64,000 nt of DNA. Origin: Escherichia coli (GTDB taxonomy: Bacteria > Pseudomonadota > Gammaproteobacteria > Enterobacterales > Enterobacteriaceae). Shown here in pieces: positions 3,544 to 34,291 of the stretch; position 1 is the stretch's first letter, and each line of letters opens with the position of its first letter. The stretch lies in NCBI RefSeq assembly GCF_041248615.1, contig NZ_CP158426.1; one strand, 5' to 3'. Below the pieces are notes generated by a model that was not told the DNA's origin, did not search any database, and saw only the letters and a program-made list of their open reading frames with translations. The translations under genes and the position numbers were made by a program.

Positions 3544-4361
3544 ACGTACATATCCTGTTTACGTGCCCAGTCAGGGCGTTTAATAATTTCCACGCCGCCC
3601 CATTCATCATTTATGCGGCATTCGTGATAGGTATTCAGATCCCGGCGGAACAGAGCGTGCCCGGCATCGACATCCGGCGCATCCAGCTCGAACACGCGTA
3701 CCGGATACCGACCACAATCAATGCTTTCGCTCACGGCAAGAAAGAAAAAACCATGCGGTTGACCAGTAACCCTCATTGCGCCTTCGCGGTACATTGCGTC
3801 CTGCACGTGGTAGCGGAATTCCTCGATGTGGCGTGCAAAACGGTCCATATCTGCAACCTTTTTCACGTCGACGATCACGTTGTGCTCGTTCAGCCATTTG
3901 TCTGGACGAATGCGGCACAACTCACCCGTCTCTTCATCGTTCCAGTACATTGATGCTTCGCAGTAACCAGGTGCTTCCAGCATCCAGCGTGCCGCCGGAT
4001 GAGCCATTGCGCTATCACGCATGAGCTCAAGTTTTCGCCACTGCTCGACATCAAGTACCGTAATACCCATATCCGCCACATCACGAAGAAATGCTTCTTC
4101 GTCAGCTTTACCTTGTTTTGTCCGACGATCGAATTTCGGTGAAACGATGAAGCGTTTGTCAAACTCTCCAGGTTCCAGAAGCAGACAGTGCAGAGCAGTA
4201 CCCATGTCCAGTGCAGACTTCTTCTCTTCGTCTTCCGGAGCAGCCTTCACCCATTTCAGAAGGGCAGGGTTCTTAGCCACCATATCTAGCTGCGACTTAC
4301 TCACGCCGTCACCGGCGTGGTAGTCCTCGTTGCTGATATCGAAATAAATTCCCGGATTCAT
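3540..4361 (-). CDS. RecE/exonuclease VIII-like PD-(D/E)XK nuclease
   Basis: N-terminal ISNEDYHAGDGVSKSQL plus the D...VDVKK nuclease motif. Paired with recT. Confidence 0.8.
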   Translation of the reverse strand: MNPGIYFDISNEDYHAGDGVSKSQLDMVAKNPALLKWVKAAPEDEEKKSALDMGTALHCLLLEPGEFDKRFIVSPKFDRRTKQGKADEEAFLRDVADMGITVLDVEQWRKLELMRDSAMAHPAARWMLEAPGYCEASMYWNDEETGELCRIRPDKWLNEHNVIVDVKKVADMDRFARHIEEFRYHVQDAMYREGAMRVTGQPHGFFFLAVSESIDCGRYPVRVFELDAPDVDAGHALFRRDLNTYHECRINDEWGGVEIIKRPDWARKQDMYV

Positions 4362-4657
4362 GCCGCGTCCCTCTGCCCATCAATCTGATCAGCCAGATCC
4401 CAGCGGGCGATAATTGCCATTGCCTCGCGCCGGTAGGCATCCATCAGTTCTTCGAACTCAGGGCTGTCTTTAGCAGCCTCCAGCACTTCCTGACGAACGC
4501 CTTTGCCTGTTACAACGTCGAAAGTTGAGGACAGTTGATGAAGTCGGATGCTCTCAATCAGTTCAACTTGTCGGTCATATAGCTGTTCTGACAGGCGGTA
4601 GTCCTTGTCGAATGCCAGCATGATTTTTTGAAGATTTTTCTGCTGATTAACGTTCAT
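4358..4657 (-). CDS. Hypothetical early protein (99 aa)
   Basis: ATG at 4657 preceded by a GGGAGGG RBS. Its stop overlaps the start of the downstream nuclease gene. Confidence 0.6.
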   Translation of the reverse strand: MNVNQQKNLQKIMLAFDKDYRLSEQLYDRQVELIESIRLHQLSSTFDVVTGKGVRQEVLEAAKDSPEFEELMDAYRREAMAIIARWDLADQIDGQRDAA

Positions 4658-4659
4658 TA

Positions 4660-4812
4660 TCAGCCCTCCCATATCTCGTTATCGTTGGCTACATCGCGAG
4701 CTTCTTTGCTGACGAAAGCCCACTTAATGCCTTCCTGTAAGGTGCGGAACTTCCAGCTCATGAATCCGCATGCAGTAACGCAGTACCAACCGTTGATGAT
4801 TTTCCACTGCAT
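4660..4812 (-). CDS. Possible 50-aa early protein (not in the ORF track)
   Basis: ATG at 4812 with a GAGG RBS. It is the first ORF of the leftward operon. Sequence MQWKIINGWYCVTACGFMSWKFRTLQEGIKWAFVSKEARDVANDNEIWEG. Confidence 0.45.
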   Translation of the reverse strand: MQWKIINGWYCVTACGFMSWKFRTLQEGIKWAFVSKEARDVANDNEIWEG

Positions 4813-4830
4813 AACTTGTTACCTCGGTCT

Positions 4831-4909
4831 GTTACTGTTGAGGTAATGATTATGCGTATCTGGTTTGATGTCAATAGATATGAGTTAAAAAAATTACCCA
4901 TAAGGTAAT
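4831..4909 (-). promoter_or_regulatory. Leftward early (PL-like) promoter with two operator sites
   Basis: On the minus strand: -35 TTGACA (4869-4874), 16-nt spacer, -10 TAATCA (4847-4852). Operators are GTTACTGTTGAGGTAAT (4831-4847) and ATTACCCATAAGGTAAT (4893-4909), with centres 62 bp apart. Confidence 0.6.
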
Positions 4910-4921
4910 CTTGTTGGCAAT

Positions 4922-4943
4922 AAAAAAGCCGCCATAAGGCGGC
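4922..4943 (-). terminator. Rho-independent terminator after the repressor gene
   Basis: GCCGCC-TTAT-GGCGGC followed by TTTTTT on the minus strand. Confidence 0.8.
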
Positions 4944-4965
4944 TTACTTACTGAAAAATATGATT

Positions 4966-5550
4966 TTATTGTTTGTTTTTTTCGTTCTGGTTGATGACAA
5001 ATTCAATGTAACTTTCGATCTTTGCCTTCTCTGTTTCAGGTAACAATGCGTAGCGCGAGCGGTCATAGTTGATAGTTGCAGGGTCATGCGGATGAATCAG
5101 TAGTTCATATCCGTGACGCCCGAATGCAGATGCAACATTCTCCAGGGTGGAAATGGAAACGCTGACTTCATTGTTTAACAGGCGGCTTATTGTCACCTGG
5201 GCGACGCCGGATGCGCGGTGAAGTTTTCCCTGAGTTGAAAGGTCGCGGCTTTCACTCATCCAGCGTTCCAGGTTGTGAGCTGCCAGCTGACCAATGTCGC
5301 TTGGGCCGACAGGCTGAAAACCTTCCTGAGAAAGCGAGCGATCGATATCAAGCCAGTTACGGGGTTTATTGGCGGCAGCTTCAATTTTTCGCGCAACCTG
5401 GTCGCCGATAACCTTCTTGCCAAGAGCCCAGCGGTTTACCAGATTTGCCTGAGTTCCAAGTTTTTCTGCCATCCGCGTCTGAACACCATTGAATTCACGG
5501 TCGATCAAGTCGTTGAGATTTTGCCTGCGGACGTCCTGGATACTTTTCAT
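4966..5550 (-). CDS. Prophage repressor (CI analogue) with two HTH units and no peptidase domain
   Basis: It lies between the leftward and rightward operator clusters and is divergent from a Cro-like gene. XRE-type HTH units are at about residues 25-50 and 115-145. No S24-type Ser/Lys autocleavage motif is visible. Confidence 0.75.
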   Translation of the reverse strand: MKSIQDVRRQNLNDLIDREFNGVQTRMAEKLGTQANLVNRWALGKKVIGDQVARKIEAAANKPRNWLDIDRSLSQEGFQPVGPSDIGQLAAHNLERWMSESRDLSTQGKLHRASGVAQVTISRLLNNEVSVSISTLENVASAFGRHGYELLIHPHDPATINYDRSRYALLPETEKAKIESYIEFVINQNEKNKQ

Positions 5551-5604
5551 TTTCTGGAAAATCGCCTCATATATGAATCAGTAGATGATTCAATTTAAAG
5601 CAAT

Positions 5605-5672
5605 ATTACCCAACAGGTAAATGCACCTCATAGGTAACTATCCTTGATTTTTGTTACCTTATGGGTGAATAT
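5605..5672. promoter_or_regulatory. Rightward operator cluster (OR-like) with divergent promoters
   Basis: Three 17-bp sites at 5605, 5622 and 5653. The plus-strand promoter is TTGATT (5644-5649), 17-nt spacer, GAATAT (5667-5672), and spans the third site. Confidence 0.6.
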
Positions 5673-5989: not shown

Positions 5990-6006
5990 CGTACCTCAAA
6001 GGTAAT
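5990..6006. promoter_or_regulatory. Operator-type site CGTACCTCAAAGGTAAT
   Basis: Matches the dispersed ACC-N5-GGTAAT palindrome. It sits directly after a terminator and directly follows ATATCTATTCGTA, whose last four bases (CGTA) are its first four. Confidence 0.5.
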
Positions 6007-7935: not shown

Positions 7936-8014
7936 ATTACCTGTTAGGTAATAAAATATTCTAAAATCTATTGATTTCGTGTCTTATGTGGTTTTTAATT
8001 ACCTCAGAGGTAAA
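7936..8014 (+). promoter_or_regulatory. Promoter of the next rightward unit, with two operators
   Basis: -35 TTGATT (7971-7976), 17-nt spacer, -10 TTTAAT (7994-7999). Operators at 7936-7952 and 7998-8014 have centres 62 bp apart, the same geometry as the leftward promoter. Confidence 0.55.
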
Positions 8015-12104: not shown

Positions 12105-12139
12105 ATTACCACAACGGTAACTATTACCACGGTGGTTAT
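12105..12139. promoter_or_regulatory. Two operator-type sites upstream of terS
   Basis: ATTACCACAACGGTAAC (12105) and ATTACCACGGTGGTTAT (12123). They lie within the direct repeat ACTATTACCAC x2. Confidence 0.5.
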
Positions 12140-14852: not shown

Positions 14853-14929
14853 TGGCGTGGCATGCAGGATTCGAACCTGCGACCAACCGCTTAGAAGGCG
14901 GTTGCTCTGTCCGACTGAGCTAATGCCAC
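14853..14929 (-). tRNA. tRNA-Arg (anticodon UCU) with encoded CCA
   Basis: Full cloverleaf folded by hand: acceptor GTGGCAT/ATGCCAC, D arm GCTC/GAGC, anticodon arm ACCGC-CTTCTAA-GCGGT, T arm GCAGG-TTCGAAT-CCTGC, discriminator G, CCA. Confidence 0.93.
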
Positions 14930-15250: not shown

Positions 15251-15329
15251 GTTACCTGAAAGGTAATAATTTGTGCGTTAAATGTCAACTGTCTACGATA
15301 AATAAATCATATGTGGTTAAATTGGTAAT
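15251..15329. promoter_or_regulatory. Divergent control region upstream of the portal operon
   Basis: Operator GTTACCTGAAAGGTAAT (15251-15267) and variant GTGGTTAAATTGGTAAT (15313-15329) have centres 62 bp apart. CATATGTGGTT motif at 15308-15318. Confidence 0.5.
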
Positions 15330-19748: not shown

Positions 19749-20084
19749 ATGTCAGGTGAGAAACCAAGATACCGCGTTCTGCGCCTCTCTCATATCCATA
19801 ACACACTGTGGCCGGAGGGGGCAGAAATCGAATACGAAGGTGAGCCTGGTAGCGCACTGGAACCTGTTAACGATGCAGCCAGACAGGCAAAAGCAAAAGT
19901 TGCAGGAAAGGTGTCTATGGCAGCAACCAGCATCAAAATCATCAACGATGTGTCAGATGATGGTGAACTGGATAAGCTCCGTGAAGAGTACGAATTGCTC
20001 TTTAACGAGAAGCCACACCATAACGCCAAAGCAGAAACGCTCCGCGAGAAGATCGCAGATAAGCGTAAAGAACTGGGCGTGTAA
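19749..20084 (+). CDS. Hypothetical head-module protein
   Basis: ATG at 19749 after a GGTG RBS. Followed by a terminator. Confidence 0.55.
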   Translation: MSGEKPRYRVLRLSHIHNTLWPEGAEIEYEGEPGSALEPVNDAARQAKAKVAGKVSMAATSIKIINDVSDDGELDKLREEYELLFNEKPHHNAKAETLREKIADKRKELGV

Positions 20085-32094: not shown

Positions 32095-32116
32095 AAAAAA
32101 GCCCGCAGCGCGGGCT
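32095..32116 (-). terminator. Rho-independent terminator after the 179-aa gene
   Basis: AGCCCGC / GCGGGCT stem followed by TTTTTT on the minus strand. Confidence 0.8.
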
Positions 32117-32655
32117 TACCAAAACTTGTACCACGGGGATTTATCCTTCAATGGACAATCCTTCCATCGTGTGGCCAACCATTCATATTCTTTAAAATAT
32201 GTGTTTATGTTTTCTTTTTCTCTAATGGCTTGTATAAGAGGTAGCGCAATCTGATAGTTATTTACAACGGAGCTGTAAAATACTTCCTTAATCATGGTCT
32301 CATCATAAGTTTTCCGCTTCACGCTCACAGCCATGCGTTCGTAGAAACCTAGACAGTAAATTATTTCTCTCTTCTCTGTCTTTTCTTCATCCGTAAGATC
32401 AGCCTGCCCATTGCTTGGATACATATAAGAGCGGAATGATTTGTTCGATTCGTGAATGCGGCGCATAGTAGATAGGCCTTTCTTATAATCTACATCAAAC
32501 CTGCTTTCACCAAGGAATACTGAAGTGTGTACTTTTCTCGCTGTATTTACATTATAAATAATAGTAGCGATAGCTATGAACAAGCCAAGCGAAACCGCGA
32601 CTGCACTTACGATTTGAGCCACAGCCATGGCAAATTGCATTTCTTCACTTAACAC
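32116..32655 (-). CDS. Membrane-anchored accessory protein (179 aa), possibly DUF4760-like
   Basis: N-terminal TM helix (AMAVAQIVSAVAVSLGLFIAIATIIY) and a helical cytoplasmic domain ending EYEWLATRW. AT-rich. GTG start with a GGAG RBS. The family call is from memory. Confidence 0.7.
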   Translation of the reverse strand: MLSEEMQFAMAVAQIVSAVAVSLGLFIAIATIIYNVNTARKVHTSVFLGESRFDVDYKKGLSTMRRIHESNKSFRSYMYPSNGQADLTDEEKTEKREIIYCLGFYERMAVSVKRKTYDETMIKEVFYSSVVNNYQIALPLIQAIREKENINTYFKEYEWLATRWKDCPLKDKSPWYKFW

Positions 32656-32714: not shown

Positions 32715-32747
32715 TTAAACGCCTTCGTACTCGTCAAATTTTCTCAT
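32715..32747 (-). CDS. 10-codon mini-ORF (MRKFDEYEGV) with a strong RBS
   Basis: AGGAGG lies 7 nt before the ATG. The ORF sits between an operator site and the terminator. Whether it is translated is unknown. Confidence 0.25.
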   Translation of the reverse strand: MRKFDEYEGV

Positions 32748-32783
32748 GTGGGCTCCTCCTGTATCGGTGCCTAATCGCTATGG

Positions 32784-32800
32784 ATCACCCGTGAGGTAAT
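32784..32800. promoter_or_regulatory. Operator-type site ATCACCCGTGAGGTAAT
   Basis: Matches the dispersed palindrome. On the minus strand a TACTAT -10-like hexamer abuts it. Confidence 0.5.
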
Positions 32801-32865
32801 AGTAAGCTATTCACCTGCAATCTGTACAGAATTATTTAAAGGCACATCCCTGTGCCGCCGCCCCG

Positions 32866-33576
32866 TCAGAAGAACCCTGCCTTGTCGTTGATGTATTCCG
32901 CGTGAGTCTGGATATCACGCAGGCATTTGCTCACACCGACGATGTAGCAAAACATGGTGGTCAGCTCCGCCGCCGCGCCCGATACGTCGTGCCCGTCGTC
33001 CTGTAACTGGTTCAGCAGATTCATCAGCAGTGAGTTCTCCGTCAGGCCGAGAACACCAGACGGAGAATGAATCAGACTGCGGTAGCCGGGCTTCAGTGGG
33101 GCGCTGTAGGTTTTGTTCTCTATCTTCATTGCCTGCATCACTGCTGATGCTGTGGCGTTGGCTACCTGGTCGGCAACCATCTTTATGCGTTCTTCCTGCG
33201 GGAGCGAGTTTTTAATGTAACTTCCGGTGCGGCGGATCTGAGGAAGAACCTCACCTGTAACCCATTTACGAAAGCGGTAGGGGATAGTGCCTGGTGTCAC
33301 CGCATCGCGGCAGCGGAGGATCAGTGTGTAGAGGCCTGACTCGGAGATGATGTTGATCTCTTTTACTCGGCTGTCAAAAATCGCACGATGTTCATGCCCT
33401 ATGTTGAACATAGACCTTTCATCATCATCCAGTTTTTCAAGTGATTGGGTGACGTTTTGGATACGCAGCGCACTACAAACGTCTTGGGCTACAAACCATG
33501 GTTGGCCATCGATAATGATGGAACGGATAGGGTTAACAGATTCAAATTTGAAGATGGCAGTTTGAGCATTAGCCAT
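32866..33576 (-). CDS. ant: Antirepressor (Bro-N domain plus C-terminal domain)
   Basis: IFKFESVNPIRSIIIDGQPWFVAQDVCSAL is a Bro-N/Ant N-terminus. ATG at 33576 has a GGAG RBS. The C-terminal roughly 70 aa are about 48% identical by eye to the 85-aa protein upstream. Confidence 0.8.
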   Translation of the reverse strand: MANAQTAIFKFESVNPIRSIIIDGQPWFVAQDVCSALRIQNVTQSLEKLDDDERSMFNIGHEHRAIFDSRVKEINIISESGLYTLILRCRDAVTPGTIPYRFRKWVTGEVLPQIRRTGSYIKNSLPQEERIKMVADQVANATASAVMQAMKIENKTYSAPLKPGYRSLIHSPSGVLGLTENSLLMNLLNQLQDDGHDVSGAAAELTTMFCYIVGVSKCLRDIQTHAEYINDKAGFF

Positions 33577-33730
33577 GGTGGTTATCTCCACTTAGTGATT
33601 TTAATCACCACCGCAACGCCAATTACTGGTGGTGAACTGGACAAGGTTGGCGTACCGGCCTAAGTGGTACCGGCGTCCTTTCGGACCCCTGCCCAGCCCA
33701 CCATAATTCGGATATAGCTGTGCTTAACGC

Positions 33731-33852
33731 ATAAAAAAACCACGTCTGGCGTGGTATGCGCCACTTAGTAACTCGGGACGCCAATCCCGGCACTGGATTT
33801 TGCCAGTGCCAGATTACTATGGCACAAGAGGAGTGCGATGTAAATTTACCGC
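33731..33852 (-). ncRNA. Candidate roughly 120-nt terminated leader RNA / small RNA upstream of ant
   Basis: It would start at the predicted promoter (33860-33888) and contains hairpins at 33789-33810 and 33775-33788. It ends at terminator ACCACG-CCAGA-CGTGGT + TTTTTTT (33731-33755). Confidence 0.4.
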
Positions 33853-33888
33853 AAAGGTAAATATAAGCACTCCAGTTGGTAATTGCAA
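33845..33888 (-). promoter_or_regulatory. Operator-controlled promoter upstream of the ant leader
   Basis: On the minus strand: TTGCAA (33883-33888), 17-nt spacer, TATATT (33860-33865). Operator TTTACCGCAAAGGTAAA (33845-33861) overlaps the -10 and +1. Confidence 0.55.
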
Positions 33889-33891
33889 ACC

Positions 33892-34149
33892 TTATCTGGT
33901 TTGTTTTCGTAATTGTTCGGCACAATAGTCGAGATGTGTTTGCAGATCCCGCATAGACATCTGTGAGCTGGTGACGTAGTTAATCAGTGCAGTCAGTTCG
34001 GCAAGTGGGCCATCGACATTAAATCCATCCTTATCGAGATCCCGGAGTAATTTCATCAAGTGCGATCCCTCCACCAGTGACCTGACGCCTCCCGGCGTGT
34101 GAATCCTTTCGGTAAATCCGTCTTCCAGTGGATAGTGATACTGCTGCAT
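33892..34149 (-). CDS. Small protein (85 aa) paralogous to the Ant C-terminal domain; putative second antirepressor
   Basis: ATG at 34149 with a GGAG RBS. A LexA box lies just upstream. The longer 126-aa ORF would run through the promoter/operator region. Confidence 0.65.
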   Translation of the reverse strand: MQQYHYPLEDGFTERIHTPGGVRSLVEGSHLMKLLRDLDKDGFNVDGPLAELTALINYVTSSQMSMRDLQTHLDYCAEQLRKQTR

Positions 34150-34168
34150 CTTATCTTCTCCATGCAAT

Positions 34169-34188
34169 AACTGTATATTTATACAGTA
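34169..34188. promoter_or_regulatory. LexA (SOS) box
   Basis: AACTGTATATTTATACAGTA, a perfect CTGT-N8-ACAG core with an AT-rich centre. It lies 20 nt upstream of the 85-aa gene. Confidence 0.8.
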
Positions 34189-34224: not shown

Positions 34225-34291
34225 ATCACCTGAAAGGTAATATCTATTCGTATTTACAGTCTTTCTATCCATATGTGGTTTTTCAGGTAAT
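34225..34291. promoter_or_regulatory. Divergent control region upstream of the tailspike gene
   Basis: Operator ATCACCTGAAAGGTAAT (34225-34241), ATATCTATTCGTA (34240-34252), and CATATGTGGTT-N5-GGTAAT (34270-34291). Confidence 0.5.

Follow-up and report, generated by a model that had tools for sequence, protein, structure and literature searches.

How a prophage leaves lysogeny when its repressor carries no autocleavage domain, and why the same antirepressor domain is encoded twice in it, are the questions raised by a locus in a 64,000-nucleotide stretch of the Escherichia coli contig NZ_CP158426.1 (assembly GCF_041248615.1), hereafter the window. The locus comprises ant1, encoding a small antirepressor, and ant2, encoding a fusion of a Bro-N domain to a second copy of the same antirepressor domain; the repressor, Rep, is encoded elsewhere in the prophage. 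Our analysis makes it likely that the prophage is held by Rep and released by two antirepressors that have one Rep-binding domain in common and respond to different inputs, LexA for ant1 and a C4/IsrK RNA pair for ant2. The original prediction had described an SOS-linked induction circuit made of a repressor, a LexA box, and two paralogous antirepressor-domain proteins. It was right in outline and had missed the identity of this circuit with the system of Salmonella phage SPC32H, two RNA genes, a terminator, and two promoter-like sites.

Its nucleotide sequence places the prophage in the genus Uetakevirus, among podoviruses resembling phiV10 and epsilon15. Nucleotide identity over the queried region was 97.8% with HEMP4 and 92-95% with TL-2011b, ZX5, and phiV10 (megablast). 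The 1.4-kb ant region was 100% identical to positions 1472860-1474260 of the chromosome of E. coli NRZ14408 (NZ_LT599825.1), and the annotation of the prophage was taken from the counterpart of the window in that record (1440001-1504000).

An SPC32H-type repressor and its probable antirepressor

The components of the SOS-linked part of the circuit are the following.

4966-5550, minus strand: rep, master repressor of the prophage, with two helix-turn-helix-type domains (PDB 5D50_A, Pfam)
33892-34149, minus strand: ant1, 85-residue stand-alone antirepressor of the SPC32H Ant family (PDB 5D50_E, tblastn, PHROG 450)
34169-34188: LexA (SOS) box, AACTGTATATTTATACAGTA (TACTGTATAAATATACAGTT on the coding strand), identical to the 20-nucleotide consensus at 18 of 20 positions

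Rep matched the chain named 'Repressor' of PDB entry 5D50, which is the Rep-Ant complex of phage SPC32H, over its whole length (5D50_A, residues 1-190, E-value 4e-42). Its C-terminal half also matched a separate construct, 5D4Z, corresponding to the tetramerisation domain of Rep (residues 92-198). Pfam detected an HTH_3 domain at residues 106-147, a weak second match of the helix-turn-helix type (YdaS_toxin) at residues 21-61, and no S24 peptidase domain, the mark of autocleaving repressors of the lambda cI/LexA type. The two helix-turn-helix units and the missing peptidase domain noticed in the original prediction were thereby confirmed. The repressors of phiV10 and ZX5 were identical to Rep (100%), and the product of SPC32H rep was 41.8% identical to it (tblastn).

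Ant1 matched the chain of the same complex named 'Anti-repressor protein' (5D50_E, E-value 1.4e-46, residues 2-84) and was 86.7% identical to the product of SPC32H ant (tblastn). It belongs to PHROG 450 (E-value 7e-48), a family that is labelled 'unknown function' although the 5D50 structure exists; ant1 itself is a 'hypothetical protein' in the RefSeq annotation and in most phage records. The LexA box predicted upstream of this 85-residue gene was present and ended 19 nucleotides before the ATG codon (34149). In SPC32H, the box (TACTGTATGTTTATACAGTG) is in the same register, also 19 nucleotides before the ATG. The box was the sole site in the window within three mismatches of the consensus (0.00 expected from shuffled sequences), the only AT-rich one among three CTGT-N8-ACAG sites, and recurred in almost every related locus containing ant1. 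Occurrence of the box by chance was rejected on the basis of this uniqueness and of its conserved position.

The window thus combines a homologue of the small Ant, a Rep homologous over both domains and devoid of an S24 domain, and a LexA box at the ant promoter. By homology, this SOS core (LexA, small Ant, and Rep lacking a peptidase domain) is the already characterised and structurally solved SPC32H system. The presence of a LexA-controlled antirepressor had been correctly predicted; the likeness then drawn to Gifsy phages, the Tum protein of phage 186, and N15 was too loose, since the proteins belong to the same family as SPC32H Rep and Ant. The two phages belong to one genus, and they resemble each other in the position of ant between the virion genes and the tailspike gene, in the high identity of Ant (87%), in the homology of Rep over its full length, in the register of the LexA box, and in a TTACC-N5-GGTAA motif found both in the rep-cro region and at the ant promoter. 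By contrast, ant is directly followed by a terminator in SPC32H, and no IsrK/C4 module is found beside it.

SPC32H Rep is reportedly not cleaved in the SOS response; Ant is said to inactivate it, and LexA to repress the ant promoter, such that a single base change in the LexA box reportedly produced a constitutively lytic phage, SPC32N. As cited in a later paper (PMC9638917), Rep binds DNA as a tetramer, and Ant, itself tetrameric, disrupts the Rep tetramer by binding two of its dimers. Indirect support for SOS inducibility comes from prophages of the phiV10 species, which were induced 21- to 47-fold by a DNA-damaging microcin. It could be argued that the LexA box is incidental and that Rep is inactivated in another way, by RecA-stimulated cleavage or by a protease. 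No observation made here favoured this reading, and it appears highly improbable in view of the conservation of the position of the box across phages of Salmonella, E. coli, and Enterobacter, of the absence of the S24 domain from Rep, and of a repressor family said not to be cleaved.

The two proteins differ in their conservation: Ant1 and Rep are 87% and 42% identical to their SPC32H counterparts, respectively, and in Klebsiella phages the corresponding values are approximately 63% and 45%. Either Ant1 contacts conserved surfaces of Rep, or the ant1/tailspike and rep modules have separate histories.

The motif TTACC-N5-GGTRA is a candidate Rep operator. Its copies bearing on rep and the ant genes are the following.

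5606-5668: operator cluster of the rep-cro region, composed of TTACCCAACAGGTAA (5606-5620), the variant GCACCTCATAGGTAA (5629-5643), and TTACCTTATGGGTGA (5654-5668)
34226-34240, minus-strand sequence: operator-like site TTACCTTTCAGGTGA, 1 nucleotide upstream of the TTGCAA -35-like hexamer of ant1
33846-33860: perfect operator TTACCTTTGCGGTAA, a copy of TTACC-N5-GGTAA, between the ant genes
32785-32799, minus-strand sequence: operator-like site TTACCTCACGGGTGA, downstream of ant2 and upstream of a DUF4760 gene

The motif was found at 11 places in the window for 0.09 expected. All seven perfect TTACC-N5-GGTAA palindromes were located inside the prophage, as were six of the nine sites with one mismatch. 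SPC32H contains 12 sites of the same motif, distributed in the same pattern at equivalent places, including three copies at the equivalent position of the rep-cro region. From its position, we infer that the motif is the Rep operator. The site at 34226-34240 sits in the divergent region common to ant1 and the tail-fibre gene, and is found with the same spacing in SPC32H (20013-20027), Enterobacter phage Tyrion, and ZX5. The operator at 33846-33860 is at the same place, abutting a -35 hexamer, in Tyrion, Klebsiella phi3.2, phiV10, and ZX5. At both ant promoters, the motif ends 1 nucleotide before a -35-like hexamer (GGTGA-T-TTGCAA and GGTAA-A-TTTACA). The site at 32785-32799 is kept approximately 320 nucleotides past the Ant2 domain in most related loci.

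Motif copies were located at 4832-4908, 5606-5668, 5991-6005, 7937-8013, 12106-12138, 15252-15266, 32785-32799, 33846-33860, and 34226-34240. They precede nearly every operon (early-left, rep-cro, terminase, portal/head, DUF4760, and both ant genes) and also occur downstream of the replication genes. This distribution suggests that one repressor acts directly on early and late promoters, rather than through a lambda-like cascade. The RefSeq start of the small terminase gene (12060) lies upstream of the two operator-like sites at 12106-12138, whereas in SPC32H the operator precedes the start of terS; the annotated start of the terminase small subunit may therefore be too early.

A second antirepressor domain fused to Bro-N

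The second antirepressor gene is encoded downstream of ant1 on the same strand.

32866-33576, minus strand: ant2, 236-residue fusion of a Bro-N domain (residues 17-112; 33241-33528) and an Ant-type domain (residues 155-231; 32884-33114)

The open reading frame and its Bro-N domain were as predicted (PF02498, E-value 3.4e-19, 69.7 bits for a cut-off of 25.6). Residues 155-228 of Ant2 aligned without gaps to residues 2-75 of Ant1, with 43% identity over 74 residues (BLASTP, E-value 4e-20). The paralogy of Ant1 and the C-terminal part of Ant2 is thus upheld; the identity of 48% estimated by eye was too high. Residues 155-231 also matched residues 3-79 of 5D50_E, again without gaps (E-value 2.2e-13), and PHROG 450, the family that holds the small Ant as well (E-value 6.5e-36). 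In the window, tblastn detected no copy of the Ant domain in addition to ant1 and ant2. In SPC32H, no second Ant-domain gene was found, the only tblastn match to the Ant2 domain being ant itself (40.5%). The AlphaFold2 model of the fusion had a mean predicted local distance difference test score of 54, and Foldseek returned no match in the PDB at an E-value of 0.001 or below; the homology assigned to the Ant2 domain is therefore one of sequence.

The strongest evidence that Ant2 may act on this Rep comes from phage ZX5, which has an identical Rep and a near-identical Ant2 region. ORF4 of ZX5, encoded at the same locus, is 80% identical to Ant2 overall and differs from it by one residue from approximately residue 70 to the end. 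When ORF4 was overexpressed in the course of infection, the prophage titre fell from 10^9 to 10^6 (approximately 1000-fold) and rep mRNA decreased by 75% (Li et al. 2022, PMC9782041). That paper makes no mention of the small Ant, the LexA box, SPC32H, or the RNAs described below. In addition, the identities of Ant2 and Rep run in parallel across phages: they were 98-100% for both proteins in E. coli phages, 79% (Ant2) and 78% (Rep) in Tyrion, and 54% and 45% in Klebsiella phages. Ant2 tracks Rep more closely than Ant1 does.

The same data bear on the target of Ant2. Bro-N antirepressors are extremely widespread and modular, and Ant2 is just 43% identical to Ant1. Ant2 could accordingly be directed against the repressors of other resident prophages, in a crosstalk of the kind known for Gifsy antirepressors, or against a host target via Bro-N, rather than against its own Rep. 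We consider this very improbable: overexpressed ORF4 affected lysogeny by ZX5, its own phage, the identities of Ant2 and Rep rise and fall together, and the Ant2 domain matches the Rep-binding protein of 5D50. A target nearer at hand would be Ant1, whose activity Ant2 might modulate through mixed oligomers, as a brake or a timer. Compatible with this are the reported tetrameric state of Ant, the ungapped alignment of the paralogues, and the existence of natural Ant1/Ant2 recombinants such as P0145. Such a role is nonetheless very unlikely, as ORF4 overexpression favoured the lytic pathway instead of blocking it. P0145 (84 residues) is a natural chimera with an N-terminal half of the Ant1 type and a C-terminal half of the Ant2 type, produced by recombination between the paralogue lineages.

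A C4-type RNA module upstream of ant2

An Rfam scan of the whole window returned three matches above the gathering score, one tRNA and two RNAs located between ant1 and ant2. With the sequences that surround them, these are the following.

33860-33888, minus strand: promoter-like sequence P1, TTGCAA, 17-nucleotide spacer, TATATT (9 of 12 in the consensus scan, a pattern match only)
33816-33844, minus strand: promoter-like sequence P2, TTTACA, 17-nucleotide spacer, TG-n-CATAGT with an extended -10 (9 of 12 plus TG)
33733-33809, minus strand: IsrK-like RNA (c4 a1/b1 leader), RF01394, 67.2 bits for a gathering score of 50
33625-33708, minus strand: C4-type antisense RNA, RF01695, 66.0 bits for a gathering score of 45, full model matched
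33586-33622, minus strand: target region in the ant2 leader, with b2 UUGGCGU at 33616-33622 and a2 CUAAGUGG at 33588-33595

The -10 hexamer and start region of promoter-like sequence P1 run into the operator at 33846-33860. The IsrK match begins at the start predicted for P2 (approximately 33809). In the IsrK-like RNA, b1 (UUGGCGU) occupies the loop of hairpin 2 (33778-33784), and a1 (CUAAGUGG, 33761-33768) the linker that precedes an intrinsic terminator (33739-33755 followed by U7). From the ant1 stop codon to isrK, the same scan detected no terminator on the minus strand. The family c4-a1b1 (RF03163) overlapped the IsrK match; its 43.5 bits fell slightly short of the gathering score (46.7). 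The C4-type RNA is predicted to fold into a long stem with a' (CCACUUAG, 33660-33667) in the loop of an internal hairpin, followed by a single-stranded b' (ACGCCAA, 33647-33653). Both segments are exactly complementary (8 of 8 and 7 of 7 positions for a' and b', respectively) to sites in the IsrK-like RNA and in the ant2 leader. The a2 site overlaps the Shine-Dalgarno sequence GGAG (33586-33589), located 9 nucleotides before the ant2 ATG codon (33574-33576). Upstream of the same gene, the IsrK and C4 pair recurs in phiV10, TL-2011b, Tyrion, and a Klebsiella phage. The C4 and a1b1 RNA families were defined by Weinberg et al. 2010 (PMC2864571); neither RNA is annotated in RefSeq or in the phage records. 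A match to RsmV at 32841-32883 was treated as spurious (15 bits for a gathering score of 100).

Because ant2 has its own promoter-like sites, is preceded by the terminator of the IsrK-like RNA, and has a ribosome binding site predicted to be targeted by C4, it is not a second member of a LexA operon in any simple sense. The original prediction had also assigned a second layer of control to the phage operator between the ant genes. This site is real, but it is not special to that spot, as the motif precedes most operons; the second layer of control on ant2 would be mainly RNA-based.

The pairing scheme was examined by extracting the module from the window, four phage records, and 78 loci of IMG/VR, which yielded 67 loci in seven sequence classes. 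Since the short segments a', b', and b2 were misaligned by MAFFT, complementarity was tabulated with an anchored script. Among the 67 loci, four variants of a' (CCACUUAG, CCUUUUAG, CCUUUGUAG, and CCGUUUAG) and two of b' (ACGCCAA and AGACCAA) formed six combinations. With G-U pairs allowed, complementarity was full in all 67 loci for a1, a2, and b2, and in all but one, a single recombinant, for b1. Swapping the partners between classes cost one to five pairs. The scheme is thus supported by covariation. The a' code of ZX5 (CCUUUUAG) differs from that of this prophage.

Pairings other than those of a' and b' are also suggested by the sequence. A leader segment, GGUGGUGA (33605-33612), is invariant in all module classes and complements the 3' strand of the basal stem of C4, UCACCACC (33625-33635). 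In this window, AUGGUGG in the 5' strand of C4 complements CCACCAU at the ant2 start codon.

Two known systems combine these elements. In the immI regions of phages P1 and P7, which comprise the c4 antisense RNA, icd, and ant, the a' and b' segments of c4 pair with the sites a1/b1 and a2/b2. The present locus shares with immI a C4-family RNA that would be processed from the antirepressor transcript, two segments with upstream and downstream pairs of sites, a downstream pair covering the ribosome binding site, a putative operator of the primary repressor at the promoter, and a'/b' variants with matching targets. The differences are that no icd-like gene is present, so that C4 targets the Shine-Dalgarno sequence of the antirepressor gene itself; that Ant2 is unrelated to Ant1/2 of phage P1 and carries the SPC32H Ant domain; and that the host of the module is a podovirus with a second, LexA-controlled antirepressor. 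No leader open reading frame of the icd type was found between C4 and ant2, which has its own Shine-Dalgarno sequence.

Gifsy-1 likewise contains a separate LexA-controlled antirepressor. In its isrK-orf45-anrP locus, IsrK acts in trans on the read-through transcript, so that AnrP can be translated and the prophage is induced (Hershko-Shalev et al. 2016, PMC4825925). Both loci combine an IsrK RNA that has a terminator of its own, a C4-like region reached by read-through (STnc1160 in Gifsy-1), and a downstream antirepressor gene, translationally silent until activated by the short IsrK in Gifsy-1 and predicted to be silent here. In contrast to Gifsy-1, both antirepressors of this prophage have one common repressor-binding domain, no IsrJ was detected by the Rfam scan of the window, and there is no coupling open reading frame of the orf45 type: its equivalent, initiated at an AUG in the 5' strand of C4, has 14 codons only (33660-33704, minus strand) and stops at a UAG inside the a' loop. 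This frame has approximately 36 codons in ZX5 (1041-1154 of the extracted stretch, annotated 'ash family protein') and in phiV10, and 45 (orf45) in Gifsy-1. The a' loop that a phage carries determines how long this frame is, and in these phages the frame is therefore unlikely to be conserved as coding sequence.

These comparisons lead to the following scheme. Rep, a non-cleavable repressor of the SPC32H type, would keep the prophage silent. The first input would follow the known mechanism, by homology: LexA would occupy the box over the ant1 promoter, and its removal upon DNA damage would allow the production of Ant1, which would take Rep off its operators. The second input is drawn from the sequence comparisons and covariation. 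Transcription of ant2 from its own promoter or promoters would first produce the short IsrK-like RNA ending at its own terminator; read-through would extend transcription into the C4-type RNA and then the ant2 leader. Pairing of a' and b' with the leader, at sites one of which overlaps the Shine-Dalgarno sequence, would leave ant2 transcribed and untranslated, following the c4 logic of P1 and P7. C4 might exert this block either while still part of the read-through transcript (in cis) or once processed out of it (in trans). Carrying identical copies of the targets, the IsrK-like RNA would behave as a decoy: its accumulation would compete for C4 and free the ribosome binding site of ant2, as in the IsrK logic of Gifsy-1. 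Because a Rep-type operator abuts the promoter, its output should also depend on occupancy by Rep. In the most speculative step, transcripts of ant1 driven by the SOS response would end as IsrK-bearing RNAs, as expected from the lack of a terminator between ant1 and isrK in this compact locus, and together with the loss of Rep this feed-forward would produce Ant2 as a reinforcing second wave.

Several points weigh against this scheme. We infer the binding of LexA and of Rep to their sites and the contacts between the Ant proteins and Rep; cognate binding of Ant1 and Rep is assumed, with Rep at approximately 42% and Ant1 at approximately 87% identity to the SPC32H proteins. The operators at the ant promoters are centred at approximately -44, abutting rather than covering the -35 hexamer, and Rep could act there with either sign. 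In SPC32H, mutation of the LexA box alone reportedly led to constitutive production of Ant, so the operator at the ant promoter would be no strong block in that phage. An insert of 0.8-1.1 kb separates ant1 from isrK in about half of the related loci, and read-through between them is therefore not general. In the absence of a coupling open reading frame of the icd or orf45 type, the details depart from both P1 and Gifsy-1. Finally, ant2 is dispensable or accessory: a frameshift disrupts it in phiV10, and it is missing from all Salmonella members and from part of those of E. coli, Enterobacter, and Klebsiella; PAS61, BUCT554, and BUCT711 lack it. In phiV10 (1512-2191 of the extracted stretch) and the O157 typing phages 9 and 10, the frameshift splits the gene into a 194-residue Bro-N protein and a 29-residue open reading frame. 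The upstream isrK/C4 module is intact in these three phages despite the frameshift.

The diversity of the codes raises a different interpretation, namely that the C4-controlled fusion is mainly a device of infection or superinfection, forming a second immunity region like immI of P1 or P22, and not an amplifier of induction. An incoming genome would make Ant2 against the resident repressor, and C4 made by the resident prophage would block the ant2 of phages with the same code. In its combination of promoter-associated operator, c4-type RNA, and antirepressor, the architecture equals that of P1 immI. The existence of six a'/b' combinations among phages with the same Rep resembles diversifying selection on immunity specificity, as between P1 and P7, and some relatives have two convergent modules whose codes differ, or the same Ant2 domain within an ant-arc-sar module of the P22 type. 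The ZX5 experiment, moreover, measured infection and not induction. However, the homologous IsrK locus of Gifsy-1 does drive prophage induction, and a role in superinfection is compatible with release by two antirepressors rather than exclusive of it. As a replacement for that reading, we regard it as possible but doubtful.

The immI region of P22 (ant, arc, mnt, and sar) offers a further parallel, being an accessory antirepressor region located late in a podovirus genome and controlled by an antisense RNA. A link is seen in TL-2011b, in which an Ant with a P22_AR_N domain, an Arc-like gene, and a sar RNA accompany the same Ant2 C-terminal domain. The P22-type module is absent from the window, in which C4 and IsrK take the place of Arc/Mnt and sar.

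Modularity and distribution of the antirepressor domain

Domains of the Ant2 type were found alone (approximately 95 residues) and fused to Bro-N, to AntA (PF08346), and to P22_AR_N (PF10547). Among the 120 matches listed for the search with the small Ant, only stand-alone homologues appeared; the fusions surfaced only with the Ant2 domain as the query. An additional, third Ant-domain gene was present in 22 of the 78 IMG/VR loci. In TL-2011b, the third antirepressor gene (4431-5375 of the extracted stretch, minus strand) combines P22_AR_N with an Ant2-type C-terminal domain 95% identical to that of the window, and is flanked by the Arc-like gene (5448-5615, minus strand) and the sar RNA (5377-5444, plus strand; RF00262, 44.8 bits). 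In one related locus (L010), a gene for a 218-residue AntA::Ant2 fusion (3637-4293, minus strand) is convergent to the Bro-N::Ant2 gene and comes with a separate IsrK/C4 module, whose hybrid code is composed of a' CCACUUAG and b' AGACCAA. That related prophage therefore contains two C4 modules of different code.

The module, or a part of it, was detected in 533 of 5426 complete E. coli genomes (approximately 10%), 200 of them at a coverage of at least 80%, and at least 182 IMG/VR stretches contain a coding sequence for the Ant2 domain. The relatives obtained in the IMG/VR scan were 98-100% identical, and the scan informs on prevalence and C4 variants, not on deep diversity.

Thus, the ant1/ant2 locus is a new assembly of known modules that is common in E. 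coli. Two of its aspects are new: the repeated use of one repressor-binding domain, found twice in a single prophage and in three copies in some relatives, each copy with a control device unrelated to the others; and the c4/IsrK riboregulator predicted to govern the second copy, which is unannotated in RefSeq and in phage records. A broader generalization is possible, although we put it forward tentatively. The Ant domain would be a portable Rep-targeting module placed, in one antirepressor island of Uetakeviruses of E. coli, Enterobacter, and Klebsiella, under up to three sensors: LexA for Ant1, the C4/IsrK code for the Bro-N and AntA fusions, and Arc with sar for the P22_AR_N fusions. Rep operators at each promoter would close a positive feedback, and the island would function both as a multi-input induction switch and as a diversifying second immunity among phages with the same Rep.

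The prophage as a whole, approximately 39 kb in length, is inserted after guaA. According to the annotated record, its integrase gene starts just before the window, and an Rz-like gene at approximately 39.1 kb of the window marks the far end, followed by the host genes yfgI, yfgH, and pdeF and others. The tRNA detected by the Rfam scan is a phage-borne tRNA-Arg (14856-14929, minus strand, 73 bits); as in SPC32H, it has the terminase genes on one side and the portal operon on the other. Downstream of ant2, the DUF4760 gene (32116-32655, minus strand; PF15956, E-value 8e-31; PHROG 2284, unknown function) is preceded by an operator-like site and a 10-codon mini-open reading frame (32724-32756). 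The megablast match to HEMP4 starts only at position 32831 of the window, and the region of this gene is outside that aligned stretch. Assignment of the gene to a defence system was dropped, as PADLOC returned no match; it may be a moron.

The six natural a'/b' codes and their matching targets constitute a ready set of orthogonal antisense switches. They also offer a direct means of asking whether immunity of the c4 type diversifies among phages that have a common repressor. For the prophage family itself, which is common and associated with the gut and with Shiga toxin-producing E. coli, the finding bears on the response to be expected upon DNA damage, and possibly upon other cues.

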